From contig JAXHVD010000022.1 in NCBI GenBank assembly GCA_034189385.1, forward strand, positions 1-64,000: a stretch of 64,000 bases of DNA, read 5' to 3'. Origin of the DNA: Thermodesulfobacteriota bacterium (GTDB lineage Bacteria > Desulfobacterota > Desulfobacteria > Desulfobacterales > C00003060). Position 1 is the stretch's first letter. Each line of letters opens with the position of its first letter. Of this stretch, positions 11,441 through 58,711 are shown piece after piece. The notes under the pieces are model-generated. The model was not told where the DNA came from and made no database searches. It saw only the letters and a program-made list of their open reading frames with translations. The translations under genes were made by a program, and so were the position numbers.

Positions 11441-12466
11441 CTAGAAGATGTCAATGCGAACAGGCACTTCCAGGAACTCCAGGCCTTTTTGGTTCGTATA
11501 GATCTTCAGGGTATCCATGTTTACCCCCTTCTTAAGCTTTTCGGCGATGGGTTCAACGAATACCCGCACTGTGCGGCCGGGAGTCAGTACCGTAACAACG
11601 GCCTTAAAGAGCGATTTTTCCAATTCCGCCTTATTGATTTTCAAATCATTGCCCTTGTTTAGAACAATCGTCACGGGACGCCTGGCAAACCTATCGCCGG
11701 TCTTTGCCTGCGCCACCCGCTCCTGTGACAGGCGGCCAAAACTCACTGTTCTTGGCCGTGCTTCCACAGTGGCCCTGACGTTGCCTGATATCCGGATCAC
11801 GATCTGGGGCTTTTCCGGATAGTTGGTGCTCAACGTGATCTGGCCGCCGTAAGTTGTTTCTTCTTTGACCTTGTTTTTAACCGTCAGTTTGTAGGTGCGT
11901 CCCTTGTCCGTCTCCTCCAACTCTGCCGTCACCTTGTCCGGAACAGAGACAGACTCCAGTTTGACCGTCAATGGCTCCTTTTTCTTCGCCTGCACATGAA
12001 CAACCTGTTTGATCTCATCACCCACGATCCCCCTTAGCTGCACGTATCGCGGTTTGAGATCGATCGGGGCCCAAATGTTGCCTTGCATACTGATGGTCAT
12101 CTGGGGATTCTTGGGGTCATTGGTCATCACCCGGGCCGACTTGTTCATCCTGCCTTGATAACCCTTTGTGCGCAACTCTAACGTAATCTTCCCCTCACCT
12201 CCGGGGGGGATGGTCCGGTCAAACCGGGCCACACTGCAGCCTCAACCCGGTTTGACGCTCTTGATCTCCAGGGGAGCATCGCCGCGGTTAAAGACCCGGA
12301 AGTCGTGTTTTACCACCTCGCCTTGGGAGACCTGAGAAAAGTCATAGGTGGGTTTTTCTATCTCCACGGCCGGTACGGCCTTTTGTTCCTCTGCTGCTTG
12401 TGTGAACCCGGCCACAACCATGAGCGCCAGCCATCCCAAGAGCATACCTCTAACGAACCGCATCAT
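11441..12466 (-). CDS. DUF1573 domain exported protein, probable selenoprotein (UGA at 12242-12244 read as Sec; 341 aa)
   Basis: ORFs 12242-12466 and 11441-12232 are in frame: EIKSVKPG-UGA-GCSVARFD, matching the family xCGC motif; signal peptide; SECIS-like hairpin. Confidence 0.85.
12211..12231 (-). promoter_or_regulatory. Bacterial SECIS-like hairpin
   Basis: UGGCCCGGU-UUG-ACCGGACCA starting 10 nt after the UGA, with G in the apical loop. Confidence 0.7.
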
Positions 12467-16296: not shown

Positions 16297-16383
16297 GCCG
16301 AAGTGGCGGAACTGGTAGACGCGCTAGGTTCAGGGTCTAGTGGATGAATGTCCGTGCGAGTTCGAGTCTCGCCTTCGGCACCA
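16297..16383 (+). tRNA. tRNA-Leu(CAG)
   Basis: 87-nt cloverleaf GCCGAAG...CTTCGGC ACCA, loop TTCAGGG, long variable arm. Confidence 0.97.
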
Positions 16384-16394
16384 GCAATAAAAAC

Positions 16395-16427
16395 AAGGGG
16401 TTACGTGTATTCACGTAGCCCCTTTTT
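16395..16427 (+). terminator. Intrinsic terminator after tRNA-Leu, supplied by the island
   Basis: AAGGGGTTACGTG-tatt-CACGTAGCCCCTTTTT. Confidence 0.75.
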
Positions 16428-16536
16428 CGTAGACGCAATTCTTGCTGGCTACAAAATGGCTAAAGTTTGTAAGTCAGATTAGATATATTTTATTTGATAT
16501 CGGGTGGTTGAGAGTTGTTACAGGTTAAAGAAAAGT

Positions 16537-16944
16537 TCAGTTTTTTAGCTCTGTTGGATTTTCGTATGTATTACCTATTATTTTAAATGTGTCTGCTGCT
16601 TTTACTTCTTTTATATGTCCGAAAAATGGTATTTTTTCTTTTCTTCCAATTACATCAACATAAAAAGCTCCATCTTTATACTTTATTATTCCTTTGAAAT
16701 AATCTGTTCCCCAAGAAAAGCCATTACTATATCCATAATTAATAATATCTTCCTCATATATTTCTTTTCCATTCTTATCTTTAAGACCTGTGTATTGCAT
16801 TAAGATAAGATTTAAATCATTTGCCATATCAAAAAACTCATTCAGGCTTTTTGTTATTCTTACAGAGCCCTTAATACCTATTCTATCGCCACTGGTCATT
16901 TTCTTTTTTTCTTTATCCCAAGCTCTAAATCTAAATTCTCTCAT
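16537..16944 (-). CDS. YopX family phage protein
   Basis: MREFRFRAWD, LMQYTGLKDKNGKEIYEEDI, IIGNTYENP. Confidence 0.93.
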   Translation of the reverse strand: MREFRFRAWDKEKKKMTSGDRIGIKGSVRITKSLNEFFDMANDLNLILMQYTGLKDKNGKEIYEEDIINYGYSNGFSWGTDYFKGIIKYKDGAFYVDVIGRKEKIPFFGHIKEVKAADTFKIIGNTYENPTELKN

Positions 16945-17073
16945 AAGTTTTTGAACAAAAAAGGCGGAACTTAGCAAAGGGAGTAACCACTAACCTTCAC
17001 CGAGTTTCCGCCGTTTCTGTTGGTTACTAATTAAAAATAGTTTTAAAAACGTGTATATAAGGACACACAATAC

Positions 17074-17101
17074 ATTATAACATACTGAAATAATTTGTCA
17101 A
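17074..17101 (-). promoter_or_regulatory. Consensus sigma70 promoter driving the YopX leader
   Basis: Minus strand TTGACA-16 nt-TATAAT with extended -10 TG. Confidence 0.75.
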
Positions 17102-17170
17102 TGTGCATAAAACCTCTTATTTTTTAAGCAAAATCCTTCAAAAAAACTTCCTCATGGCCTATTTTTTCTC

Positions 17171-17199
17171 TTGCAATACACCATATGTAGTAGTATAAG
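17171..17199 (+). promoter_or_regulatory. Sigma70 promoter for the island tRNA
   Basis: TTGCAA-17 nt-TATAAG. Confidence 0.6.
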
Positions 17200-17251
17200 A
17201 GGCAAAATAAAAAAGGAGACCCAATATAGGGGGGTCTCCTCTGTTCTAGGT

Positions 17252-17329
17252 GCCCTCGTAGCTTAAAGGATTAAAGCAACGATCTCCCGAATCGTTAGAA
17301 TCCGAGTTCGAATCTCGGCGGGGGCACCA
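17252..17329 (+). tRNA. Island-borne tRNA with CCC anticodon (nominally Gly) on an Arg-like body
   Basis: Complete cloverleaf GCCCTCG/CGGGGGC, D GCTT/AAGC, AC stem ACGAT/ATCGT, loop CTCCCGA, T CCGAG-TTCGAAT-CTCGG, ACCA end. Confidence 0.88.
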
Positions 17330-17543
17330 TCTGTAACTGTAAGTTCATTCTCTGCAAAAACTTGACTATTTGTCAACTACTTTTTTGAAAAGTTTAAAAA
17401 CTTCTCGCTAAAGAATGGCTACAAAAAACTTTCCTAACCCTTCCTTTTTAGGGTGTTCCCTTCCTAAATCTTCCTATAACTTTTTTAAGGTAATTTAGTT
17501 AGTTAGGTAATATTAGGCGGTTAGAAAAATAGGTGAGAAAACT

Positions 17544-17598
17544 TTCAGGGTCTAGTGGGTGTACGCCCGTGCGAGTTCGAGTCTCGCCTTCGGCACCA
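17544..17598 (+). repeat. att site: displaced original 3' portion of tRNA-Leu
   Basis: Starts at the anticodon loop TTCAGGG; identical to 16329-16383 except in the variable arm. Confidence 0.92.
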
Positions 17599-17911
17599 CG
17601 CCTATCAAGGCCCTCAGGCCGCACTAGCAGTGTGAGTGTCTCTCCGCCAGCCCAGTGGCTGTTGGAAAACCAATTAGGGTTCTATTAAGCACCGCCAAGG
17701 AGTCTGTCAACCCGGCCCCCGGGAGGGAGCAAATCCGAGAAGGGGCAAAGACTTGACAAACCCTTTGCTATCACATACCCAGTCACCAGGATCTGGTTCG
17801 CCGAGGAGCGGTGGGCTTCAGATGCAACCTCTCATGGGATGAGATACAGATGCTGCGTCTCCGGGCCTTTGACCGGCCATCAGCGCATTGTTTAGAATGC
17901 AAGGGGGAAAA

Positions 17912-19231
17912 ATGAGACCAACCCTAGGAAGACTGGCAACGTTGTGGGTCTTGATGCTGCTTTCGGTTTCTCTTGTCTCGTGCAACGGAAACGGAGGCGA
18001 CAGTGGCGCTTCATCGCAGACAGTCCAAGGGGCCTTCATCGCCTCTGAGAGGGAGCGGAGCATGGTCCCCGCAACCAGTCCATGGGATGTAGATGAGCTT
18101 GTTGAGGGGAACACGGACTTTGCCTTTGACCTGTATCAGGCCCTGCGAGACGAAGATGATAATGTGATCTATTCGCCTTACAGCATTTCTCTGGCCCTGG
18201 CCATGACCTTTGGAGGCGCCAGACATCAGACAGAAATGCAGATGGCAGAGACCCTCAACTTCACCTTGGGCCAAGAAGGGGTCCACCCTGCCTTTAATGC
18301 CCTTGACTTGGAACTGGAAAGACGCGGAAAAGGTGCCCAGGGCAGTGATGGAAAAGGATTCCGGCTTCATGTCGCCAACGCCATTTGGGGGCAGGCCGGC
18401 TATTCGTTCCTTTCAGATTTTCTTGATACCCTGGCCGAGAACTATGGGGCCGGTTTAAGGTTGCTCGATTTTGCCGCCGTGCCGGAAGAATCCCGCCTTA
18501 CGATCAATGACTGGGTCAGTGATGAGACTGAAGAAAGGATCCCAGATTTGCTTCCCCCGGGGTCTGTCACCTCCCTTACCCGGCTGGTCCTCACCAACGC
18601 TATTTACTTTAATGCTGCCTGGAATTTTCCCTTTGACGAGTTGGGAACCCAACCGGGTTTGTTTCATCTCCTAGGCGGCGGTGAGGTCACAGCGGACATG
18701 ATGTCCCAGGTGGAGCACTTCAACTACTTTAGGGGGAGCTATTATCAGGTAATCGAACTCCCCTATGATGGCCATGAGCTTTCCATGGTGATCTTCATCC
18801 CCGATGAAGGGTGGTTTGAAGCATTTGAAAACGTCTTGACGGCGGACAAGGTGGACGAGATGGTAAAAGGACTGTCTCCCGAAAACGTGAGCTTGACCAT
18901 GCCCAAATTTACGTTCGACTTTGGCCTCAGCCTGAATCAAATCCTGGCAGCCATGGGGATGCCTGACGCCTTTGATCCCACGGCGGCCGATTTCTCGGGC
19001 ATGGACGGTTCCCGCAGCCTTTTTATCTCAAATGTTTTGCACAAGGCCTTCATCGCTGTGGATGAAGAAGGCACAGAGGCTGCTGCTGCAACGGCAGTGG
19101 TGATGGAACTGACCGCTGTGCTTGATCCTCCCATTGTGGTGTCCATTGACCGGCCCTTTGTCTTTATGATTCGAGACTTGGAGACAAGGACAGTGCTTTT
19201 CATGGGCCGGGTCTTGCATCCTGAGACTTGA
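17912..19231 (+). CDS. Serpin family lipoprotein
   Basis: Lipobox LVSC; YSPYSIS, LTNAIYF..W, hinge EEGTEAAAATAV, DRPFVFMI. Confidence 0.93.
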   Translation: MRPTLGRLATLWVLMLLSVSLVSCNGNGGDSGASSQTVQGAFIASERERSMVPATSPWDVDELVEGNTDFAFDLYQALRDEDDNVIYSPYSISLALAMTFGGARHQTEMQMAETLNFTLGQEGVHPAFNALDLELERRGKGAQGSDGKGFRLHVANAIWGQAGYSFLSDFLDTLAENYGAGLRLLDFAAVPEESRLTINDWVSDETEERIPDLLPPGSVTSLTRLVLTNAIYFNAAWNFPFDELGTQPGLFHLLGGGEVTADMMSQVEHFNYFRGSYYQVIELPYDGHELSMVIFIPDEGWFEAFENVLTADKVDEMVKGLSPENVSLTMPKFTFDFGLSLNQILAAMGMPDAFDPTAADFSGMDGSRSLFISNVLHKAFIAVDEEGTEAAAATAVVMELTAVLDPPIVVSIDRPFVFMIRDLETRTVLFMGRVLHPET

Positions 19232-47628: not shown

Positions 47629-48909
47629 GTGATCATTCTTTACAATATATTGCTTTCCATGGGCATCGTTTTATGCCTGCCTGTCATCGTCGTAAAGGTG
47701 CTGACGGACCAGAAGAGGGGCCGCACCGTTTTCAGGAGACTGGGCGTGCATCGTTTTACCAAGGCCCCTGCAACAAGACCGATTTGGGTTCATGCCCTTT
47801 CTGTTGGTGAGGTGCTGGCCGCTACCCCCTTGGTAGAAGAGATACGAAAAACGCACGCCCATTGGCCTGTCGTCGTATCGGTATCAACGCTTACCGGTTA
47901 TGAGATTGCCAAAAGGACCTTGGAAGCCGATGTTGATCAGATCTTTTACTTTCCCTATGACGTGGTTTGGTCTGTGAGAAGGATCATTCGCTCCATCCAT
48001 CCTGCCATATTCATCTTGGTGGAATCAGATATTTGGCCGAATTTCGTATACGAGATGAAGAGACAGCACATTCCCTTTGTTCTTGTAAACGGCCGGATTT
48101 CGCCAAGGTCTTTTTCTGGATATGGATATTTTTCTTTCTTCATGAGGCATGTGTTTTCCAACGTGTCCAGCATTTGCACCCAGACCGCCATGGATGCCAG
48201 GCGGTTTCTGGCAATCGGGACTCCACCTGAGAAGATTCACATCACGGGAAATATGAAGTTTGATCAGGCGCCTGTCTTTGCATCCTGTGAAGAGGTCAGT
48301 GAAATGAGAGCGGCCATGGGCATCACACCAGTGGCTAAGGTGGTGGTGGCAGGAAGCACTCATGAGGGTGAGGAGGCGGTGCTGTCGCGTTGCGTCCGGG
48401 CCCTGAAGAGGAATTTCCCAGACCTTGTGTTGGTCCTGGTGCCGAGAGATCCATTGCGGGCCAAGAGCATTCAGGCAATCCTTAGCCAAACAGGATGTCT
48501 TGCTTTGTTGAAAACCCAATTAGGGAAAATGGAGCCAAAGTACATGCCGGAGGTCATCATTGTCGATACCATAGGCGAACTGAGACGACTATATGCCATG
48601 GCTGACGTCGTATTTGTGGGAAAAAGCCTGGTAGATCTGGGAGGGCAGAATCCACTGGAACCAGCAGCCTTGAAAAAGCCCATACTCTTTGGGCCTCATA
48701 TGTTCAATTTTCAACGCGTTTCCGAGCAACTTGTTCGACAAGGTGGCGCCCTACAGGTGGCAAACGAGGAGGAACTTTTGCATCAGCTAGATGCGCTGCT
48801 GGCCGATGCCGCCAGATCCGAAGCTATGGGAATGGAGGCCTACAGGGTTTTTCAGATGAACCGAGGCGCTGTTGACAACACCTTAAGGGTGATTGAGGAG
48901 TTTCTGTAG
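47629..48909 (+). CDS. waaA: Kdo transferase, copy 1
   Basis: WVHALSVGE, ESDIWPN, GNMKFD, AGSTHEGE, GGQNPLEP; GTG start aligned with copy 2. Confidence 0.95.
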   Translation: MIILYNILLSMGIVLCLPVIVVKVLTDQKRGRTVFRRLGVHRFTKAPATRPIWVHALSVGEVLAATPLVEEIRKTHAHWPVVVSVSTLTGYEIAKRTLEADVDQIFYFPYDVVWSVRRIIRSIHPAIFILVESDIWPNFVYEMKRQHIPFVLVNGRISPRSFSGYGYFSFFMRHVFSNVSSICTQTAMDARRFLAIGTPPEKIHITGNMKFDQAPVFASCEEVSEMRAAMGITPVAKVVVAGSTHEGEEAVLSRCVRALKRNFPDLVLVLVPRDPLRAKSIQAILSQTGCLALLKTQLGKMEPKYMPEVIIVDTIGELRRLYAMADVVFVGKSLVDLGGQNPLEPAALKKPILFGPHMFNFQRVSEQLVRQGGALQVANEEELLHQLDALLADAARSEAMGMEAYRVFQMNRGAVDNTLRVIEEFL

Positions 48910-48911
48910 GA

Positions 48912-50024
48912 ATGGCTTCTCTGCGGAGCAAGATCGAGCGTGCCATGACTCAGGGGGGTGGGGCCGCCCGTCCCTTTTCATCACCCTTTGAATGGATACT
49001 CTACGTTTGTTCCCGGGTTTACGAACTTGCCGTGAGGCTCAGGCTCTGTCTTTACCAAAAGGGCATTTTTCGGCAAGAGGGATTACCGTGCAAGGTGATT
49101 TCTATCGGCAACTTGACGGTGGGGGGCACTGGAAAGACTCCCATGGTGCATTATGTAGCGACGCTGCTAAAGAAGATTGGCCTTGAGGTGGCCGTGATTA
49201 GTCGGGGATATGGAGGGGATGCCCAGCGATCGGGAGGCATTGTCTCAAATGGTAAGACCACCTTCATGGGACCAGAGGCATCAGGGGACGAACCCCAACT
49301 CTTGGCTTTAAAACTCAAGGGGATTCCATTGCTTGTGGGAAAGAACCGCTGTCGGGAAGCCAGGCGCGTCATTAAAGAATTCGGCGTATCGGTCCTGGTC
49401 CTGGATGACGGGTTCCAACACCTGCGTATGAAGAGGGACCTCGATCTGTTGCTCCTGGATAGCAAAAGGCCTTTTGGCAACGGCTACTGTCTTCCAAGGG
49501 GGACCCTTCGGGAACCTGTGAGACAGATGAAGCGTGCCACGGCCATAGTCCTCACGAGATGGCCAGAAACCTGCAGCCTGGCTCCAGAGCGCTCTATTAC
49601 CGAGGCTTGTGCCGAAGGACGTCCGATGTTCAAGTGTAGGCATGTGCCTGAGGCGCTATTTCCGGCTGGTAAAGAGGTGCCCCTGGAGCCGTCAAGTCTA
49701 AAGGGGCGAAGGCTTTTTGCCTTTTCCGGCCTTGGCCGAAATGAGTCCTTTCAAGAAACCATTGGCCAACTCAAAGGCCAGCTAGTCGGCTTCAGCGAGT
49801 TTCCGGACCATCATGGGTATTCTCATCGTGACCTGCGTTCAATCTGGAAAAGAGCCAGGGACTTGAAGGTTGACAACATCATCACAACTGAGAAGGATTT
49901 TGTAAAGATTCATACTGAGATTCCGGAAACCCCGCCGCTGTTGGTACTGGCGATTTCGATTTCATTTGGGGATGACGGGAAACGTTTTGACAGGTATGTG
50001 AGAAACTGGGCCTTGTCTCCTTAA
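48912..50024 (+). CDS. lpxK: Tetraacyldisaccharide 4'-kinase
   Basis: SIGNLTVGGTGKTP, SRGYG, LDDGFQH, FPDHH, TTEKD. Confidence 0.97.
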   Translation: MASLRSKIERAMTQGGGAARPFSSPFEWILYVCSRVYELAVRLRLCLYQKGIFRQEGLPCKVISIGNLTVGGTGKTPMVHYVATLLKKIGLEVAVISRGYGGDAQRSGGIVSNGKTTFMGPEASGDEPQLLALKLKGIPLLVGKNRCREARRVIKEFGVSVLVLDDGFQHLRMKRDLDLLLLDSKRPFGNGYCLPRGTLREPVRQMKRATAIVLTRWPETCSLAPERSITEACAEGRPMFKCRHVPEALFPAGKEVPLEPSSLKGRRLFAFSGLGRNESFQETIGQLKGQLVGFSEFPDHHGYSHRDLRSIWKRARDLKVDNIITTEKDFVKIHTEIPETPPLLVLAISISFGDDGKRFDRYVRNWALSP

Positions 50025-50089
50025 CTGGTTGACTGGCTAAATAGTTGACTGGTTAAGTGCTCGGCGTTGGGCCGTTTTCGCGCTGACTA

Positions 50090-51148
50090 ATGGACTACTC
50101 AACCAATAAGAACATACTCATCGTGAAAATGAGTTCCATCGGAGACGTGATACATACACTGCCGGCGGTGAATGCCCTAAGGGCACATTTTCCAGATGCC
50201 CGCATTACGTGGTTGGTGGAAGAGGCGGCGTCAGCGATTGTTGCATCCCATGAGGCCGTTGATCGTATGCTTATTTCAAAGAGGAGTCGATGGGTGAGGG
50301 GGCTTTTGGGGGCATCGTGCCTTGAAAATGCTAAAGAGATCTTTCGCTTCGCAGGGGAACTCCGAGACACCAGATATGACTTGGTCATTGACTTTCAAGG
50401 GCTGATGAAGAGCGCTGCCATGGTGGCCCTTTGCAGAGGAAAGCGTAAGATCGGCTACAACAGGACCAGGGAATGGAGTTACCTCGCTCTTGACGAACGC
50501 ATAGAGCCCTATGATATAAATACCCACGCAGTTTACAGATACTTGAATCTGATAAGCCATTTGGACGTTGACACGTCAAAGATAGAGTTCAAGATTCCCT
50601 ATGACGAGAAGGACCTGTCGCGTGTCCAAACCATGCTCCGTGAAGGAGGATGGAGTAGTGGACAACCCGTTGTTGCCATGAACCCGGTGGCAAGGTGGGA
50701 GACGAAGCTGTGGGACGCAGAAAAATTCGCTCATCTGGCAGACAGGCTCATAGCACACTCACGATGCCTTGTAGTATTTACCGGAAACGAGGCCGACAGG
50801 GAAGAAATCGCCAAGATTAGGTCTAGGATGAACCATTCGTGCATGGATTTATCGGGCCGGACCGGTTTAAGGCAATTGGCGGCCCTTTACGCGATATCCA
50901 CTTGTGTGGTATCTACGGACACAGGGCCCATGCATCTGGCTGCAGCAACGGAAACCCCTGTGGTGGCCCTCTTTGGTCCCACTGCCCCATGGAGGACAGG
51001 TCCCTTCGGTGAGGGTCACCAGGTCTTACGCTCAGAGATATCCTGCAGCCCCTGTTTCAAAAGAAAATGTGACAGTAAGACTTGCATGCAGGATATTTCC
51101 GTTTCGGGCGTTTTTGACTCTGTTGCAGCGATTCTGAAGAGGAGTTGA
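50090..51148 (+). CDS. GT9 LPS heptosyltransferase (WaaC/WaaF-like)
   Basis: KMSSIGDVIHTLP, DFQGLMKS, DTGPMHLAAA, LFGPT. Confidence 0.92.
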   Translation: MDYSTNKNILIVKMSSIGDVIHTLPAVNALRAHFPDARITWLVEEAASAIVASHEAVDRMLISKRSRWVRGLLGASCLENAKEIFRFAGELRDTRYDLVIDFQGLMKSAAMVALCRGKRKIGYNRTREWSYLALDERIEPYDINTHAVYRYLNLISHLDVDTSKIEFKIPYDEKDLSRVQTMLREGGWSSGQPVVAMNPVARWETKLWDAEKFAHLADRLIAHSRCLVVFTGNEADREEIAKIRSRMNHSCMDLSGRTGLRQLAALYAISTCVVSTDTGPMHLAAATETPVVALFGPTAPWRTGPFGEGHQVLRSEISCSPCFKRKCDSKTCMQDISVSGVFDSVAAILKRS

Positions 51149-51206
51149 GCCATTCGAAGACTAGTCGCATAGTCGAGTGGTTGAGCAGCAAAAGGGAGGT
51201 AAAGGC

Positions 51207-51380
51207 ATGACAATCAGCGAGGAGTTATTGGATATTTTGGCATGTCCCAAATGCAAAGGGGATATTTATCTTAACAAGACAAAAGACGGGCTTATCTGCG
51301 ATAAGTGTAAACTCCTTTATGAAATCAAGGACGACATTCCCATCATGTTGATCGATGAAGCCAAGCCCATAGAGACATGA
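51207..51380 (+). CDS. Trm112/YcaR family protein
   Basis: LLDILACPKCKG...YEIKDDIPIMLIDEA; GGGAGG SD. Confidence 0.93.
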   Translation: MTISEELLDILACPKCKGDIYLNKTKDGLICDKCKLLYEIKDDIPIMLIDEAKPIET

Positions 51381-51436
51381 GAGGCGGGAAGGCTGTTTAT
51401 GGCTGTTTTTTTTAGATGAGACGGGTGTAGGATGAG

Positions 51437-52111
51437 ATGTTCGACTCTTTGAAACTGTCCGATTTGTCCAAAAAGCGTTGTATGCTCCTTCGGCATGGCT
51501 CCCACACGAGACCTGCTTTGTGGGTGGTGAAAGAACATGGAGTGCGGGCTGTTGTGAAAGACTTCAGTCGAGGGAAGCTGTTCTATCGAGGCATTATTGG
51601 AAGATTTCTCGTATGGAGGGAAAGGAAGGCGTATAGAAAGCTGCGCGGCCTAAGGGGTATCCCCGCCTTATATGGAGTGATTGACGGTCTGGCATTGGTT
51701 CTGGAGGAAATTCCGGGCAAGAGGTTGAAAAAGCATAAAGGGGATACAGCGCTTTCCAAAGCCTTCTTTGATGCATTGGAAGAGACGATTGAAGACTTTC
51801 ACCGAAGAGGTGTGGCCCATTGTGATTTGAAGAATGCAAGTAATATCTTGGTGGGTAACGATGGGATGCCCTACATCGTGGATTGGGCTGCTTCCATTTC
51901 TGAGAGGGAATTGAGGTTCTTTCCCTTGAATCTCATCTACCGAAGATTTGTGTCAGATGATCGCGCGGCCATCACCAAGTTGGAGTTACAATATCGCCCC
52001 GATCTCCTGAGCCCAGAAGAGAAACGGTGTTATCAAGACCGGAGTCTTGTAGAAAGAGCCGTCAGAGGTGTTAGGAATGCTCTCCGCAGGGCGTTGCAGA
52101 GAATCGCCTGA
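51437..52111 (+). CDS. Kdo/WaaP/RIO1-like kinase, copy 1
   Basis: VVKDF, HCDLKNASNILV, IVDWA; LPS operon context. Confidence 0.8.
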   Translation: MFDSLKLSDLSKKRCMLLRHGSHTRPALWVVKEHGVRAVVKDFSRGKLFYRGIIGRFLVWRERKAYRKLRGLRGIPALYGVIDGLALVLEEIPGKRLKKHKGDTALSKAFFDALEETIEDFHRRGVAHCDLKNASNILVGNDGMPYIVDWAASISERELRFFPLNLIYRRFVSDDRAAITKLELQYRPDLLSPEEKRCYQDRSLVERAVRGVRNALRRALQRIA

Positions 52112-52210
52112 GTGTTTGGTGGGGTCATCGATTGCCCAAAACAGATCTTTTTTACCTCGACGAAACCTTTCTTTCTACACCAAGTATTGCCAGGAACCCT
52201 GGAGGTTAAG

Positions 52211-52801
52211 ATGCTGCGAAATGCAGTGAGTCGCATCCACGAGATTTTCAACGATCGATGGCTGAGATCTTTGCTCAGAAAACTCCGTTACGCAATCTTT
52301 TTGGTCGCTATAGTAGTCTTGATTCCTCAAATAGAGCCTTCTTGGTTCCTGCCTGGATGTTTTCTGTGCCTTTTTGGGGAATCGATTCAGCTTTGGTGCT
52401 TCGCCTCTTTAGACAAAAACACGACACTCGCCGTGAAAGGACCCTATACCTTAATGCGAAACCCCATGTACATTGGCCGCTTCTTTCTTTTACTCGGGTG
52501 CCTGCTACTCACGGGGAATATCTGGATAATCATTGTCTTCACCCTCCTTTACTATTTTTATATGGTGAATCGGGTTCAAAGGGAAGAGGGCAAATTAAAG
52601 CGTGTCTTTGGGGAAGCATATGAGGATTACTGCCGAAAGGTGAACAGGTTCGTGCCGTCCTTTAAAGGAGTCGCCCCTGGATCATTATGGTTTTTCAGAT
52701 GGGAACTTCTTCTGAATAACAACGGACACTGGAACGCACTGGCAGTTATCATCTCTTTCGCAGTCTTCTATTTTTTTACCTTTGTCTATTCCGCGTCCTG
52801 A
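52211..52801 (+). CDS. Isoprenylcysteine carboxylmethyltransferase / PEMT family membrane protein
   Basis: GPYTLMRNPMYIG, EE..L...FGEAYEDY...VNRFVP. Confidence 0.88.
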   Translation: MLRNAVSRIHEIFNDRWLRSLLRKLRYAIFLVAIVVLIPQIEPSWFLPGCFLCLFGESIQLWCFASLDKNTTLAVKGPYTLMRNPMYIGRFFLLLGCLLLTGNIWIIIVFTLLYYFYMVNRVQREEGKLKRVFGEAYEDYCRKVNRFVPSFKGVAPGSLWFFRWELLLNNNGHWNALAVIISFAVFYFFTFVYSAS

Positions 52802-52881
52802 GAGATCATCTTTGGCAAGGTGAAATCGTCATCCTTGATGGCTTTTCTGTGGATGTAACATCTGCCAAGAGGCAATATATT

Positions 52882-53559
52882 ATGCGCATACTTCTGGTTG
52901 AAGATGATCTTAAGATTGCCTCTTTCATTCTAAAGGGGTTAAAGGAAGCGGGATTTGCTGTGGACCATGCAGTGGATGGGGAAGAGGGGCTCCATATGGC
53001 TTTAATGGAACCCTACGACACGGCCATTATTGACATCATGTTGCCCAAATTGGATGGTCTGAGTCTTATTGAGAGATTAAGGCAGAAAAAGACCAAGACA
53101 CCTGTTATCATCTTGAGTGCTAAACGGTCGGTAGATGATCGCGTGAAGGGGCTCCAAAGAGGCGGTGACGACTATCTCACAAAGCCTTTCGCTTTTTCTG
53201 AGCTTCTGGCTCGTGTACAAGCACTCATCCGAAGGGCAACGGATGCTTCAGAGCCTTCAAGTCTTTCGGTCGGTGATCTCTCCATGAACCTGCTTACCCG
53301 TGAGGTGGCCAGAGGGGACAAGAAGATCGACTTGCAGCCTCGCGAGTTTGCTCTGCTTGAATATCTGATGCGCAACGCAGGAAGGGTCGTTTCCAAGACC
53401 ATGATCATGGAACATGTCTGGGACTACAATTTTGACCCGCAGACCAACATTGTGGAGGTAAGGATATGCAGGTTGCGAGATAAGGTTGACAAAGATTTCG
53501 GGGTGAAGCTGATTCAAACCATTCGCGGGGCGGGATATGTACTTAGGGAAGCTACTTAG
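52882..53559 (+). CDS. OmpR/PhoB-family response regulator (CusR/CzcR-like), copy 1
   Basis: LVEDD, DIMLP, DDYLTKPF, TIRGAGY. Confidence 0.95.
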   Translation: MRILLVEDDLKIASFILKGLKEAGFAVDHAVDGEEGLHMALMEPYDTAIIDIMLPKLDGLSLIERLRQKKTKTPVIILSAKRSVDDRVKGLQRGGDDYLTKPFAFSELLARVQALIRRATDASEPSSLSVGDLSMNLLTREVARGDKKIDLQPREFALLEYLMRNAGRVVSKTMIMEHVWDYNFDPQTNIVEVRICRLRDKVDKDFGVKLIQTIRGAGYVLREAT

Positions 53560-54952
53560 ACTACGCCATACACTGGCGTTCAGACTCACCGTTTGGTACG
53601 CGGGCATATTCATCCTTTCATCTTTTGGGGGTTTTCTCGTCTTCTATCTGATGAACATTTCACTCATTCAGGAGGCCACTGATCAAGAACTCCTTAACGA
53701 GCGAACCGAATTTGCAACTCTCTTGAAATCGCAGGGTATTGATGCGGTGAAGACAGCAGCACAGCTTGAGGCCGAGTCTGAGGGTGTGGACAGAATGTTT
53801 TATCGCGTTCTCACCCTGTCCGGTAAGCTCCTTTGCACATCCGACATGTCAAGCTGGGGGAATCTAGCTGTCGACAGTGCGACATTACAGGGATTAAGTG
53901 GGGGAACCGGCTACCTCTTGGAAACAATGGCTATGCCAGAACACCAATATGACACCCGGATCCTCTACGCATTGATCGGGCCCGAAACCGTGTTACAGAT
54001 AGGCTTGTCATTGGAAGAGAACGCCCAGTTTCTGAAAAAGTTTCAAAGGTTATTTATTGTAATTATCGCTGCCATCGCTGTTTTTGCTGGTTTGATAGGA
54101 TGGTTCTTGGCAAGACGGGCAGTGCTGGGTGTGGAGGACGTTACCCGAACGGCACGCCATATATCGGAAGGTGCTTTGGAAAAGCGCGTTCCCGTGAAAT
54201 CCCGAGGAGATGAAATCGAACAGCTGGCAACCACCTTCAATAGCATGCTGGACCGGATTCAGACGCTGGTTATAGGCATGAGAGAGATGACTGACAACAT
54301 TGCCCATGACCTTAAAACGCCTATTACCAGAGTGCGAGGTGTGGCCGAAATGACCTTGACCACGGGAAAATCCATAGAGGATTACAGAGGCATGGCAGCG
54401 AACACCATAGAGGAGTGTGATCGTCTCCTTCAAATGATAAGGACGATGCTGGATATCTCAGAAGCTGAGGCAGGAGTCGTTAAGCTGGATATAGAAGAAA
54501 CGGATATTTGCCAAGTCATTTGCGAGGCATGTGAGCTCTTTGAGCCAATAGCTGAGGACAAGGGCATAGACATTGTACATAGATTGCCTCCCACTTGTCT
54601 GATACGTGCTGATACTCAGAGACTTCAACGAATGATAGCCAATCTTTTGGATAACGCGCTAAAATACACCGAACGCGAAGGCACGGTGAGCATTGCTGCC
54701 AATGGAGATCGACATCAGATCCTCATCTCAGTCCATGACACAGGGATCGGGATCTCCAAGGACGACCTGCCCCATATTTTTGACCGGTTCTATCGGTGCG
54801 ATCTGAGTCGCTCAGAGCCGGGTGTCGGTTTGGGCCTGAGTCTGGCCCTGGCAATTGCTCGGGCTCACGGTGGTAACATTACGGCTGAAAGCTGTGTCGG
54901 TAAAGGGAGCACCTTTACGATATCCCTCCCACGAGCGCCTCTTTCTCACTAA
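53537..54952 (+). CDS. HAMP sensor histidine kinase (CusS/CzcS-like)
   Basis: Two TMs, HAMP, AHDLKTP, NLLDNALKY, DTGIG, GLGLS. Confidence 0.95.
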   Translation: MYLGKLLRLRHTLAFRLTVWYAGIFILSSFGGFLVFYLMNISLIQEATDQELLNERTEFATLLKSQGIDAVKTAAQLEAESEGVDRMFYRVLTLSGKLLCTSDMSSWGNLAVDSATLQGLSGGTGYLLETMAMPEHQYDTRILYALIGPETVLQIGLSLEENAQFLKKFQRLFIVIIAAIAVFAGLIGWFLARRAVLGVEDVTRTARHISEGALEKRVPVKSRGDEIEQLATTFNSMLDRIQTLVIGMREMTDNIAHDLKTPITRVRGVAEMTLTTGKSIEDYRGMAANTIEECDRLLQMIRTMLDISEAEAGVVKLDIEETDICQVICEACELFEPIAEDKGIDIVHRLPPTCLIRADTQRLQRMIANLLDNALKYTEREGTVSIAANGDRHQILISVHDTGIGISKDDLPHIFDRFYRCDLSRSEPGVGLGLSLALAIARAHGGNITAESCVGKGSTFTISLPRAPLSH

Positions 54953-54965
54953 GCCCATCTGAAAT

Positions 54966-55003
54966 ATTACCAAATGGTAATCCCCCGGTAATTTCCTCGT
55001 TAG
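54966..55003 (+). promoter_or_regulatory. Putative response-regulator box 1
   Basis: ATTACCAAATGGTAAT palindrome plus GTAAT/GTAAT/GTTAG at 11-bp period. Confidence 0.7.
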
Positions 55004-55350
55004 GTTGTTGTGCTAATCAATCATTTATTGTCAGGGTGCCTACCCCCCTTTTGGCGGGTATCGGTAAACGGCAATTGATGAAGACGCAATGAACACTGTT
55101 CTGACAGAGCGCAGGGGCCATCTTTATCAGATCCAGAGTGGCAAGAAGTGAAAATGAACAATATTGGTGGGCGCATGGAGAAGGCGAATGGCCTTGAGTT
55201 GTGAGTCAGTGAAATGCGATGACGATCTGATTGATCTTTTCGTCCCGTATCCCCACTGCTCCAGCTCTTCATTGAAGCGGGATGGATCGATCGGACAGAA
55301 ATGGCTTGAAGCCAAGGAGTTGCAGAACCTCCAGAAAACAGGCTCAGATT

Positions 55351-56631
55351 ATGATCGTTCTCTACAACATGGTGATGTTGATAGGCAGCGCCCTGGCGCT
55401 GCCCGTTATTTTCGCAAAGATACTCACTTCTGAGAAACGGCAAAAAACGCTTGTCCGGCGTTTCCACCCAGATGTTTGCATTAGGGCTTCTGAGGCAAGA
55501 CCGATTTGGGTTCATGCCCTTTCTGTTGGCGAGGTGCTGGCGTCTATCCCTTTGGTAAGAGAGCTGCGGAAAACGCACGCCCATTGGCCGGTCGTCGTGT
55601 CTGTCTCAACGCTGACCGGTTATGAGATTGCCAAAAGGATGTTGGAAGGCCATGTCGATCAGATCTTCTTCTTCCCCTATGACCTGGTTTGGTCTGTGAG
55701 AAGAATCATCCGCTCCATCCATCCTGCCGTCTTCATCCTGGTGGAATCAGATATTTGGCCGAATTTCGTATACGAGATGAAGAGACAGCACATTCCTTTT
55801 GTCCTTGTAAACGGCCGGGTTTCACCAAGGTCTTTTTCAGGATATGGATGTCTGTCTTTTTTCATGAGACATGTGTTTTCCAATGTCTCCAGCATTTGCA
55901 CCCAGACTGACATGGACGCCAAAAGGTTTCGGGCAATTGGAGCTCCAACTGAGAAGATTCACATCACGGGAAATATGAAGTTTGATCAGACGCCCGTCTT
56001 TATGTCCGGTGAGGAGATCAGGAAAATGAGAGCATCCCTGGGCATCACACCAGCGGCTAAGGTGGTGGTGGCAGGAAGCACTCATGAGGGTGAGGAGGCG
56101 ATGCTGAGCCGTTGCTTCCAGGTCCTAAAAAGGAATTTCCCAGACCTTGTGTTGGTCCTTGTGCCGAGAGATCCGGCGCGGGCCAAGAGGATTCAAGAAA
56201 TGCTTAGCCAAAACGGATGCCTGGCCCTGTTAAGAACGCAATCACCGAGAATAGACGTAGGACCCGTGCCAGAGGTCATCATTGTCGATACCATGGGGGA
56301 ACTGAGACGACTATATGCCATAGCTGACGTGGTATTTGTGGGAAAAAGCCTGGTAGATCTCGGAGGGCAGAATCCACTGGAACCTGCGGCCGTAAGAAAG
56401 CCCATACTTTTTGGACCCTACATGTTCAATTTTGAGAGCATTGCCGGGCAACTGGTTCAACAAGGCGGCGCCTCGCTGGTGGCAAACGAGGCAGATCTGT
56501 TGGATCAGCTAGATGCCTTGCTGGCCGATGTGGGTAAGTGTGAAGCCATGGGAATGGAGGCTTACAGGGTCTTCAAGAGAAACCGTGGCGCCGTTGACAA
56601 GACCTTAAAGGTGATTGAGGAGTTTCTATAG
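55351..56631 (+). CDS. waaA: Kdo transferase, copy 2 (paralog)
   Basis: Long identical nucleotide blocks with 47629-48909; all motifs intact. Confidence 0.93.
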   Translation: MIVLYNMVMLIGSALALPVIFAKILTSEKRQKTLVRRFHPDVCIRASEARPIWVHALSVGEVLASIPLVRELRKTHAHWPVVVSVSTLTGYEIAKRMLEGHVDQIFFFPYDLVWSVRRIIRSIHPAVFILVESDIWPNFVYEMKRQHIPFVLVNGRVSPRSFSGYGCLSFFMRHVFSNVSSICTQTDMDAKRFRAIGAPTEKIHITGNMKFDQTPVFMSGEEIRKMRASLGITPAAKVVVAGSTHEGEEAMLSRCFQVLKRNFPDLVLVLVPRDPARAKRIQEMLSQNGCLALLRTQSPRIDVGPVPEVIIVDTMGELRRLYAIADVVFVGKSLVDLGGQNPLEPAAVRKPILFGPYMFNFESIAGQLVQQGGASLVANEADLLDQLDALLADVGKCEAMGMEAYRVFKRNRGAVDKTLKVIEEFL

Positions 56632-56641
56632 CAATTGGTGT

Positions 56642-56790
56642 TCATCACCCTTTGAGCGAACACTCTGCGCATGTTTCCTGGTTTAGGAATTGGCCATGAG
56701 GCTGAGGCCCTGTCTCGACCACAAGGGCGTTGCTAGACCAGAGGCGGTTACCGTGCAAGGTGGTTTCCAAAGGTAATCTGACGGAGGGGA
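56642..56790 (+). pseudogene. lpxK: lpxK 5' remnant
   Basis: Aligns to ~48978-49125 (TCATCACCCTTTGA...TTACCGTGCAAGGTG); truncated, no intact ORF. Confidence 0.85.
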
Positions 56791-56826
56791 AGGGTGTTTT
56801 GGAAAATGACACGGGAAGGGGAGTAG

Positions 56827-57501
56827 GTGTTCGACTCTCTGAGACTGTCTGATTTGCCTGAAAGAAGTTGCGGGATCCTGCGGCAGGTCTCGAACACAAG
56901 GCCTGTCATGTGGGTAGTAGAGGAGAATGGGCTGAGGGCTGTCGTCAAGGACTTCAGTCAGGGCAAGCTATTCTATCGAACCATTGTTGGCAGGTTTCTC
57001 GTATGGAGGGAAAGAAAGGCGTACAGCAAGCTGAGAGGCGTTAAGGGTGTCCCTGCCCTGTATCGGGTGATCGACGGTCTGGCCTTGGTCGTGGAGGAAA
57101 TTCCGGGCAAGAGGTTGAAGAAGCATAAGCGGGACATAGCGCTTTCTGAGGCCTTTTTTGATGCCCTGGAAGAGACGGTTGGACGTTTTCACCGACGTGG
57201 CATGGCCCACTGTGATCTAAAAAATGCGAGTAATGTCTTGGTGGGCCATGACGGGCTGCCCCACATCGTAGACTGGGCTGCTTCCATATGTGACAGGGAA
57301 TTGAGATGGTTTCCCCTGAATCTCATCTTTAGGAGGTTCCTTTTAGACGATGAGATGGCCATCATCAAGTTAAAATTGCGACATGCCCCTGAAATGTTAA
57401 GCTCCGACGAAAGGAGGCGCTATGGGCGCCGAAGCAAGGCTGAAAAGGTGGTGAGGTCCGCGAGAGACATGTTGCGGACAAGGCTTCAAAAGATGGTGTG
57501 A
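56827..57501 (+). CDS. Kdo/WaaP/RIO1-like kinase, copy 2
   Basis: Same length (224 aa) and motifs as 51437-52111. Confidence 0.85.
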   Translation: MFDSLRLSDLPERSCGILRQVSNTRPVMWVVEENGLRAVVKDFSQGKLFYRTIVGRFLVWRERKAYSKLRGVKGVPALYRVIDGLALVVEEIPGKRLKKHKRDIALSEAFFDALEETVGRFHRRGMAHCDLKNASNVLVGHDGLPHIVDWAASICDRELRWFPLNLIFRRFLLDDEMAIIKLKLRHAPEMLSSDERRRYGRRSKAEKVVRSARDMLRTRLQKMV

Positions 57502-57537
57502 CCGCTTCGTTTTCGAAATCTTCCAGAGGTTCTTTTC

Positions 57538-58206
57538 ATGCGTATACTTTTGGTCGAAGATGATTTGAAAATTACCTTCTTTATCTCAAAGGGGTTTAAG
57601 GCGGAGGGTCTTTCAATAGACCATGCGGCAGACGGAGAAGAGGCCCTTCAGCTCCTTTTAAAGAAACCGTACGACGCGGCCATCATCGACATCATGTTGC
57701 CCAAAGTGGACGGCCTGACGGTCATTGAGGAGCTCCGGCGGCAAAATGTCAACACCCCGGTGATTATTTTGAGTGCGAGGAGGTCGGCAGATGATCGCGT
57801 GAATCGGCTCCGAAGAGATGGTGACGATTATCTGACAAAACCTTTTGCTTTTTCCGAACTCCTGGCCCGTGTGCAGGCATTAGTTCGAAGATCCGGCGGC
57901 ATTTCAGAGCCTACGGGCCTTTCGGTCGCTGATCTTTCCATTGATCTTCTCACCCATGAGGTTGTTAGAGGAAAGAAAAAAATAGACCTGCAACCTCGCG
58001 AGTACGCCTTGCTTGAGTATTTAATGCGCAATGCGGGACGGGTCGTTTCCAAGACGATGATCATGGAACATGCCTGGGACTACAGCTTTGATCCTCAGAC
58101 AAACGTAGTCGAAGCAAGAATATGCAGATTGCGAGACAAGGTTGATAACGACTTTGGGACAAAGCTGATTCACACCATCCCAGGGGCTGGATATGTACTC
58201 AAATAG
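57538..58206 (+). CDS. OmpR-family response regulator, copy 2 (orphan)
   Basis: Paralog of 52882-53559; TIPGAGY instead of TIRGAGY. Confidence 0.88.
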   Translation: MRILLVEDDLKITFFISKGFKAEGLSIDHAADGEEALQLLLKKPYDAAIIDIMLPKVDGLTVIEELRRQNVNTPVIILSARRSADDRVNRLRRDGDDYLTKPFAFSELLARVQALVRRSGGISEPTGLSVADLSIDLLTHEVVRGKKKIDLQPREYALLEYLMRNAGRVVSKTMIMEHAWDYSFDPQTNVVEARICRLRDKVDNDFGTKLIHTIPGAGYVLK

Positions 58207-58510
58207 CGGGGTCAGGTCTAGAGAAACCTTGGCTTGCGGTTGTCCCTCTGGTACGCGGGGATCCTTACCATTTCGAGTTTTGTGGGCTTTTCCACTCTTT
58301 GTTTCAGGAAAATGTCCCTCGTCCGGGTGGTTAGAGATCAATAACTGTTGAACGAACGTTGCGAGTTTGCCAGTGTGGTCAGAGCGGTGCGGTGCCAGCT
58401 ATTGGTTTGGGCCTCAGCCTAGCCCATGGAAGTAACCTTACGGCCACAAGCTCCGTCGGAAAGGGAAGCTTCACGGTCCACCTGCCTCGAGAGCCTCTCA
58501 CAGACTGTCT
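58207..58510 (+). pseudogene. Histidine kinase remnant (5' and 3' ends fused, middle deleted)
   Basis: TGGTACGCGGG matches the HK 5' part; GGTTTGGGCCT...GTCGGAAAGGGAAGC...GAGAGCCTCT matches the HK 3' end. Confidence 0.85.
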
Positions 58511-58521
58511 CCATCTGAAGT

Positions 58522-58560
58522 ATTACCAAATGGTAATCTTCATGTAATCTTCTCGTTAAT
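58522..58560 (+). promoter_or_regulatory. Putative response-regulator box 2
   Basis: Identical ATTACCAAATGGTAAT plus GTAAT/GTAAT/GTTAA at 11-bp period. Confidence 0.7.
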
Positions 58561-58711
58561 TTGCTGTCGTATCTTCTCAGAACGGAAAATGAAGCTCGGC
58601 AAACCTCCACATGTGTCTGTAGTGGGCACACCTGCTAACGTCGGTGTGTTTATTGCCTCGCTTTCCGGCAGCTTGGAAATTCCAAAGCTTCTATAAAGAG
58701 TACTGCAAAGG

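Follow-up and report, generated by a model that had tools for sequence, protein, structure and literature searches.

On the plus strand of the window, the whole 64,000-nucleotide stretch of DNA analysed here, positions 17252–17329 hold a tRNA gene that combines an arginine-type body with the anticodon CCC. The gene lies in a low-GC islet bounded by a host tRNA-Leu gene and a repeat of its 3' part, in the company of a phage gene, promoter-like sites and a hairpin:

16297–16383, plus strand: host tRNA-Leu(CAG), integration target and left attachment site (ARAGORN, repeat); it adjoins ribF in 9 of 9 relative loci tested
16384–17543, no strand: low-GC islet of 1.16 kb, a prophage remnant without integrase; GC 0.31–0.35 against 0.52 in the genome, only the tRNA-Leu part being matched in 40 relatives
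16537–16977, minus strand: intact phage gene of the yopX family, likely start Met12 (Pfam YopX, E 4e-25; phrog_98)
17074–17101, minus strand: sigma-70-like promoter facing yopX, 12-of-12 with an extended -10 (sigma-70 scan)
17144–17200, plus strand: promoter-like stretch resembling the host nrdD promoter (G000:C3:109541-109598; sequence match with 84% identity across 58 bp, E 2e-9), with -35 TTGCAA and -10 TATAAG
17178–17193, plus strand: NrdR-box-like site between the -35 and the -10, 17.1 bits, 11th in the genome (matrix of 12 boxes)
17214–17240, no strand: GC-rich hairpin of 9 bp between promoter and tRNA (fold); terminator-like on the minus strand, with a U-rich tail, and with a weak tail on the plus strand
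17252–17329, plus strand: tRNA gene with an Arg-type body (A20, U20a, C3-G70, G37, A73), anticodon CCC, a 6-nt variable region and encoded CCA (ARAGORN, Rfam, fold, position and covariance models)
17286–17288, plus strand: anticodon CCC, reading GGG, with G37 at 17289 (sequence, ARAGORN; no other letter in the contig of sequencing run X1)
17347–17376, minus strand: promoter-like site, a 10-of-12 consensus match only, aimed back across the tRNA; a possible antisense transcript would end at the hairpin
17544–17598, plus strand: 55-bp direct repeat (93%) of the tRNA-Leu 3' part, right attachment site (repeat family D9)

ARAGORN names the gene tRNA-Gly(CCC), and it matches Rfam RF00005 with 59.1 bits (E 3e-10). 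Structure prediction on its strand yields a 7/5 cloverleaf, without the 8/4 or 9/3 acceptor branch of allo-tRNAs; none of the 20 scored stem pairs is mismatched, all 10 invariant bases are kept, and the acceptor stem combines G1-C72, C2-G71, C3-G70 and C4-G69 with a single U5·G68 wobble. The intact cloverleaf with encoded CCA of the original prediction is thus borne out, as are the letters it singled out: CCC within the anticodon loop CT CCC GA, where U33 is normal and G37 follows, A20 at 17270 within the D-loop AAAGGATTA, A73 at 17326, C3-G70, and the variable region of 6 nt at 17296–17301. The glycine determinants C35, C36, G1-C72 and C2-G71 are present, and U73 and G3-C70 are replaced by A73 and C3-G70; the arginine determinants A20, C35 and A/G73 are present, and G36/U36 is replaced by C36. 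An 8-nt loop, as in a +1 frameshift suppressor, is out, because the sole register with full stems leaves 7 nt. Evidence for C-to-U editing of CCC to CCU is lacking; Arg(CCU) genes have A37 and this gene has G37.

The only recognised protein gene of the 1.16-kb islet is yopX, and neither an integrase nor a synthetase partner for the tRNA was found there. None of the 13 glycine codons of yopX is GGG, which is attributed to low GC and not used as evidence. The islet would represent both ends of a deleted prophage. Between its attachment copies (16329–16383 and 17544–17598) the variable arm of tRNA-Leu has undergone compensatory changes, and a contig of run X3 joins the right-hand version to the 5' half of tRNA-Leu. 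Directly downstream of the islet lies a bacterial serpin gene (17888–19231; Pfam E 6e-113). Elsewhere in the window, two neighbouring minus-strand ORFs at 11441–12466 each contain a portion of a DUF1573 domain, as though a single gene had been split, and 47700–58600 contains long internal repeats (74–89% identity, spacings 4.7–7.7 kb) suggestive of paralogous modular genes.

Promoter-like sites around the tRNA

The original prediction credited the tRNA with a promoter of its own. TTGCAA-17-TATAAG does lie upstream, at 17171–17199, inside the 58 bp that resemble the nrdD promoter; however, it is not among the matches of the sigma-70 scan, and the hairpin, which the terminator scan with its loop limit of 8 missed, stands between it and the tRNA. 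On these sequence features, the upstream promoter may have belonged to a phage gene that has since been lost, and not to the tRNA.

The box between -35 and -10 is accompanied by a second NrdR-like site at 17219, which is weak (8.2 bits) and lies at a spacing of 41 rather than 31–32. As described in PMC2892513, NrdR acts at two boxes about 31–32 bp apart that overlap the promoter. The nrdD promoters of genus relatives follow the order TTGCAA, box, -10 and, 31–32 bp on, second box, with a box at about -46 to -52 in 6 of 8, and the host encodes an NrdR-like protein. Tandem NrdR-like boxes 31–33 bp apart also precede non-nrd genes of the host genome (G000 C64:115131, C1:172471, C63:76597, C1:137584, C12:174230, C9:45481 and C23:16870), among them a ParA-like gene, possibly reflecting a wide regulon. 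NrdR control of the islet promoter is a lead only, because similar tandem boxes precede several non-nrd genes and the matrix was seeded with what we take to be the NrdR box.

Body type and relatives of the tRNA gene

As a comparison set we used the unique tRNAs of the host and its relatives in the host's order, 30 Arg (including four Arg(CCG)) and 16 Gly. All 30 Arg tRNAs have A20 and 4 have G37; all 16 Gly tRNAs have U73, as the original prediction held for bacterial tRNA-Gly, together with G3-C70 and A37. Covariance models scored the window gene at 62.5 bits for Arg, 43.8 for Gly, the lowest value, and 64.4 for phage Trp. A position model with the anticodon masked placed it 53.7 bits toward Arg over Gly, with leave-one-out scores of −99 to −31 for Gly genes and a median of +90 (minimum −8) for Arg genes. 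Both kinds of model thus place Arg above Gly, in support of the predicted anticodon-shifted tRNA-Arg. Position-model scores were −119.3 for Arg, close to −117.5 for Glu (a 3-sequence set), and far lower, −173.0, for Gly; a Glu origin is ruled out by the D-stem sequence. The phage Trp model does not discriminate, because 11 of its 12 genes were chosen by the A20 pattern and known phage Arg genes reach 59–62 bits on it; all 12 training genes have G73, against A73 (and C36, not A36) in the window gene.

Among phage tRNAs with the U13-A22/GGAT D-arm, eight of nine are Arg, comprising four Arg(UCU), two of them identical, and four Arg(ACG) with G37, and the ninth is Trp; the remaining stretches of those viral scans are not tRNAs. 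These comparisons support an anticodon-shifted gene of Arg lineage on phage-derived DNA, and its simplest parent would be a G37-bearing phage Arg(NCG) gene; a single base change would suffice if the parental anticodon was CCG.

Close homologues were sought in several collections. None of the 94 phage records returned by BLAST covered 80% of the query, and the plasmid search yielded a single short match; viral pattern scans returned 0, 0, 1, 4 and 7 stretches, none with CCC. No homologue was present among 40 relatives and 36 family genomes, and the one match in 400 phylum genomes lies inside a coding region and is no tRNA. None of 32 viral yopX relatives (26–49% identity) carries such a tRNA. 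The original prediction had offered a recent mutant as one option, and the loop is indeed one base from that of Arg(CCG); yet the same body with CCG was not found in phages, plasmids, viral patterns, or family and phylum genomes, so that recent mutation is a conjecture about its origin.

Comparable genes occur elsewhere. The general pattern A20 + CCC + purine 73 returned 1 viral, 23 genome and 36 metagenome stretches, of which ARAGORN at its default cut-off accepted 24 unique Arg-body CCC genes besides the window gene, the others being chance matches, attachment-site remnants, duplicates or below the cut-off. The genome and metagenome scans covered the Arg-body CCC pattern alone, and their counts have no matched control for other anticodons; the viral control pattern gave 16 CCA in 22 (15 of them tRNAs), 1 TCA and 5 NCC, too few for an enrichment test. 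At least two pairs are broken in 10 of the 24 genes (in two partly through parsing) against none of 30 normal Arg, and seven are fully paired. Position 37 is A in 20 and G in 4, a split that fits transition versus transversion. By these features the set would look like decaying extra copies.

Three small families (L012/L024/L108, L094/L109 and L032/L112) keep CCC while both sides of stem pairs change. A transposase domain was found at 5 of 27 loci, one of them below the cut-off, and toxin-antitoxin-like domains at 3 of 27, in 97 of 113 ORFs scanned and with no background rate. Matches to normal Arg(CCG) and Arg(CCT)-type genes were also present in all five host genomes of Arg-body CCC genes that were checked.

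Several of these loci deserve notice in their own right. L012:1500-1574, L024:2501-2574 and L108:1499-1574 (and L102) form a fully paired family in which CCC is kept through a compensatory 31-39 change and the tRNA is followed by conserved, hairpin-containing sequence; L024 neighbours an IS1595 transposase, an HTH-IrrE/DUF4411 pair and LexA, and L012 a PIN gene. As a candidate for a hybrid tRNA under selection, this family is stronger than the window gene. L094:1485-1560 with L109:545-622 and L032:542-616 with L112:11-86 are two pairs of diverged Arg-body CCC tRNAs, L094 and L032 adjoining DDE or IS1595 transposases. L099:407-482, the closest look-alike in D-arm, loop and variable region, adjoins an IS1-like transposase and has an 11-of-12 promoter-like site aimed antisense across the tRNA. 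It shares with the window gene the D-arm, the CCC-G37 loop and the style of the variable loop, as well as a hairpin upstream and, on the minus strand downstream, a promoter-like site; the two agree at 47 of 69 positions and differ in 10 stem pairs, and L099 resembles the window gene less than a normal Arg(CCT) does. Viral Arg-body tRNAs with the loops GCC, TCC and ACC(G) followed by G37 occur at L193:284-359, L196:298-374 and L195:284-359. The Arg-body genes L083:65-142 and L105:1500-1574 have 8-nt loops, CCCG according to ARAGORN, and could be four-base decoders or homopolymer errors.

Charging and competing explanations

The host's own tRNAs (ARAGORN, genome) include Gly with GCC, TCC and CCC, the last a normal tRNA-Gly(CCC) on contig C62, and Arg with ACG, TCG, CCG and CCT. 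The genome encodes a full-length ArgRS, DTD and the GlyQ subunit of an alpha2beta2-type GlyRS, with one ArgRS N-domain and one GlyQ. With ordinary Gly and Arg tRNAs and enzymes in place, the window gene is therefore an extra. In 56 host ORFs GGG aligned to Gly at 246 of 323 positions and to Arg at 9, and GGC to Gly at 305 of 414 and to Arg at 20, a comparison that detects only fixed recoding and to which low-level mistranslation is invisible. Reassignment of GGG to Arg is ruled out, since GGG aligns to Gly like other Gly codons and tRNA-Gly(CCC) is kept. In the host genome (completeness 90%), ARAGORN listed no tRNA-Trp, tRNA-Ile(GAU), tRNA-Ala(UGC) or tRNA-Arg(UCU), which probably were not assembled.

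An ACC anticodon reportedly lowers arginylation in E. coli. Table 1 of PMC9976931 gives the bacterial Arg identity as A20, C35, U/G36 and A/G73, the same list as in the original prediction, and the Gly identity as U73, G1-C72, C2-G71, G3-C70, C35 and C36; the paper names A20 as the main determinant for E. coli ArgRS. One of its sentences has 'U/C36', which we take for a slip because its own Table 1 and PMC4742068 conflict with it. A yeast tRNA-Arg changed from CCG to CCC was no substrate in vivo, CCA and CCU forms being fully charged (PMC4742068), a result that is suggestive only, because yeast ArgRS leans less on position 20 than do bacteria. On the glycine side, according to PMC10464925, U73A abolishes GlyRS activity in L. 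plantarum and lowers it in E. coli, and R4-Y69 is preferred; PMC3990555 also treats this identity, and an engineered fusion enzyme described there gave rescue with an A73 tRNA. DTD is about 100-fold faster on Gly-tRNA with A73 (10.1101/322289). This suggests that the window tRNA would be bound by both ArgRS and GlyRS and loaded well by neither.

Considering its structure, context and Arg-type body, the host enzymes present and the lack of GGG recoding, we regard the window gene as probably a phage tRNA-Arg in which G36 became C, tolerated and poorly charged in a prophage remnant. A temperate phage would have integrated at tRNA-Leu, and a later deletion would have left its two ends, yopX and one phage-type tRNA. 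The ancestor of the tRNA would be a phage tRNA-Arg with G37 and an NCG anticodon, in the simplest case Arg(CCG), and the single change G36 to C would have produced the present gene. It would fold and carry CCA, and ArgRS would still bind it through A20 and C35 and charge it poorly because of C36. The host's alpha2beta2 GlyRS would meet C35, C36, G1-C72 and C2-G71 but no U73, and DTD would strip any glycine from the A73 tRNA. Mostly uncharged and nearly silent, and for that reason tolerated, the tRNA would add at most traces of Arg or Gly at GGG. The CCG parent, the poor charging, which is extrapolated from the enzymes of other organisms, and the low impact are the points at which we infer most.

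Several findings count against this explanation. The window gene lacks any decay; CCC persists in the three small families alongside compensatory changes in the stems; L099 keeps the D-arm and the CCC-G37 loop although 10 stem pairs differ. The decisive charging result comes from yeast, the E. coli side being covered by review statements, the phage Trp model scores as high as the Arg model, and no same-body CCG parent was found.

The retention of CCC across diverged copies in those three families would also fit a selected class of mobile tRNAs with an Arg body and a Gly anticodon, a reading that we hold to be unlikely. Such a tRNA would act as an uncharged decoy (through stalling at GGG, the stringent response or as a synthetase sponge) or would mistranslate at a low level; release of NrdR would turn it on and an antisense RNA would dampen it. 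The transposases and toxin-antitoxin-like domains at some loci recall the allo-tRNAs of PMC5389517, but their counts have no background rate near ordinary tRNAs. Coexistence with normal Arg(CCG) and Arg(CCT)-type genes in the five host genomes speaks for the same reading; however, the families may be unrelated to the window gene and to one another (in the comparison of the window gene with L099, 47 of 69 positions agree, and a normal Arg(CCT) is closer). The hairpin just upstream and the minus-strand promoter-like site just downstream are common to the window gene and L099, two loci chosen post hoc. The NrdR-like box does rank 11th in the genome, but its partner box scores poorly and lies at the wrong spacing, and between the promoter and the tRNA stands a hairpin that resembles a terminator. 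In its fullest form, with the window gene as a member of an undescribed and repeatedly evolved class, selected as inducible translation poisons or decoys and here governed by an NrdR-type nucleotide-stress promoter with an antisense RNA buffer, the proposal is still less likely.

We consider it improbable that the tRNA is an efficient missense suppressor inserting Arg at GGG, which would require bacterial ArgRS to rely mainly on A20 and C35. A20, C35, A73 and C3-G70 are all present, the host ArgRS is full length, A20 is the main E. coli determinant (PMC9976931) and E. coli ArgRS is described as charging a tRNA-Arg with an amber anticodon. However, C36 blocked arginylation in every yeast variant carrying it that is reported in PMC4742068. 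With GGG at 20 per 1000 codons in the host and the depth of the islet in X1 matching that of the chromosome, strong mistranslation would be costly; the alignments, which register fixed recoding only, have no excess of Arg at GGG. Insertion of Arg at GGG, one function proposed originally, is thus doubtful in its efficient form, and evasion of an anticodon nuclease, another, lacks support: with a CCC anticodon the tRNA is no substitute for a cleaved tRNA-Arg, and to stand in for a cleaved tRNA-Gly it would need to be glycylated, against which A73 speaks. Among the proposed functions, an uncharged tRNA or a recent mutant fits best.

A descendant of a phage tRNA-Trp (CCA to CCC) or an unusual working tRNA-Gly is very improbable. 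Phage Trp tRNAs with GGAT D-loops do occur (15 of 22 matches), G37 is found in some of them, and their model gives 64.4 bits, but that model is the non-discriminating one and its genes have G73 throughout. In favour of a working tRNA-Gly are G1-C72, C2-G71, C35 and C36; against it stand the Gly score, the lowest of the covariance models, the absence of U73 and G3-C70, and the DTD encoded by the host.

We give almost no credence to CCC being a sequencing or assembly error: the anticodon does sit in a short C run, but all tRNA stems are in register and a separately assembled Logan contig of run X1 (1245 nt, depth 34.5, spanning 16354–17598) has identical letters across the islet, with no other letter among the matches listed and none of the CCG that would have undercut the original prediction. 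Flanking contigs have depths of 37.5 and 40.8, placing the islet at chromosomal depth. The X1 contig excludes an assembly slip; it is not an independent sample, because X1 is the probable source run of this DNA and contigs drop rare variants. The tRNA lies outside the coverage of runs X2 and X3.

Significance and comparison with known systems

If the favoured reading of a poorly charged phage tRNA-Arg holds, the gene is a trap for annotation, since tools call it tRNA-Gly, as well as a natural test of how far bacterial ArgRS tolerates C36 and an illustration of anticodon mutants surviving mainly once they cannot be charged. If instead such tRNAs are a selected class, mobile elements would be equipped with a device made of RNA alone that disturbs the translation of Gly codons and is controlled by stress, and the range of tRNA-ProX and the allo-tRNAs would grow to include an identity pair whose two synthetases both recognise the anticodon. 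We found no description of bacterial tRNAs with an Arg body and a Gly anticodon in the literature as represented by titles and the starts of abstracts, a body of text that mostly excludes subscription journals; supplementary tables may list such genes.

The nearest relatives in form are bacterial and phage tRNA-Arg, especially G37 Arg(CCG) and phage Arg(ACG), which have the same A20, U20a, C35, A73, C3-G70, G37, A38 and phage-style D-arm. The window gene differs from them in having C36 rather than G/U36, a 6-nt variable region and a Gly codon to read. The tRNA-ProX genes of Streptomyces and Kitasatospora (ProA, ProN and ProT; PMC11415595) likewise are extra genes that join the body of one isotype to the anticodon of another. 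They are described as a conserved family co-encoded with a dedicated ProRSx, whereas the window gene has no partner synthetase in the islet and no close homologue, and its cognate enzyme, unlike that of tRNA-ProX, reads the changed base.

Allo-tRNAs, reported from Acidobacteria and other groups (PMC5389517), are also extra tRNAs with mismatched anticodons on mobile DNA; they include active and inactive members and have transposase and toxin-antitoxin neighbours, as do some Arg-body CCC loci. With 8/4 or 9/3 branches and, for the most part, a Ser identity that is independent of the anticodon, they differ from the window gene, which has the canonical 7/5 branch and a short variable region. Pcar_R0061 of Pelobacter carbinolicus (PMC3543383) is again an isotype body with a foreign anticodon, its fold kept, and is thought not to take part in translation. 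Its recessed CCA, its A33 and its position near RNA-repair genes set it apart from the window gene, where the CCA end is normal, position 33 is U and the surroundings are those of a prophage remnant.
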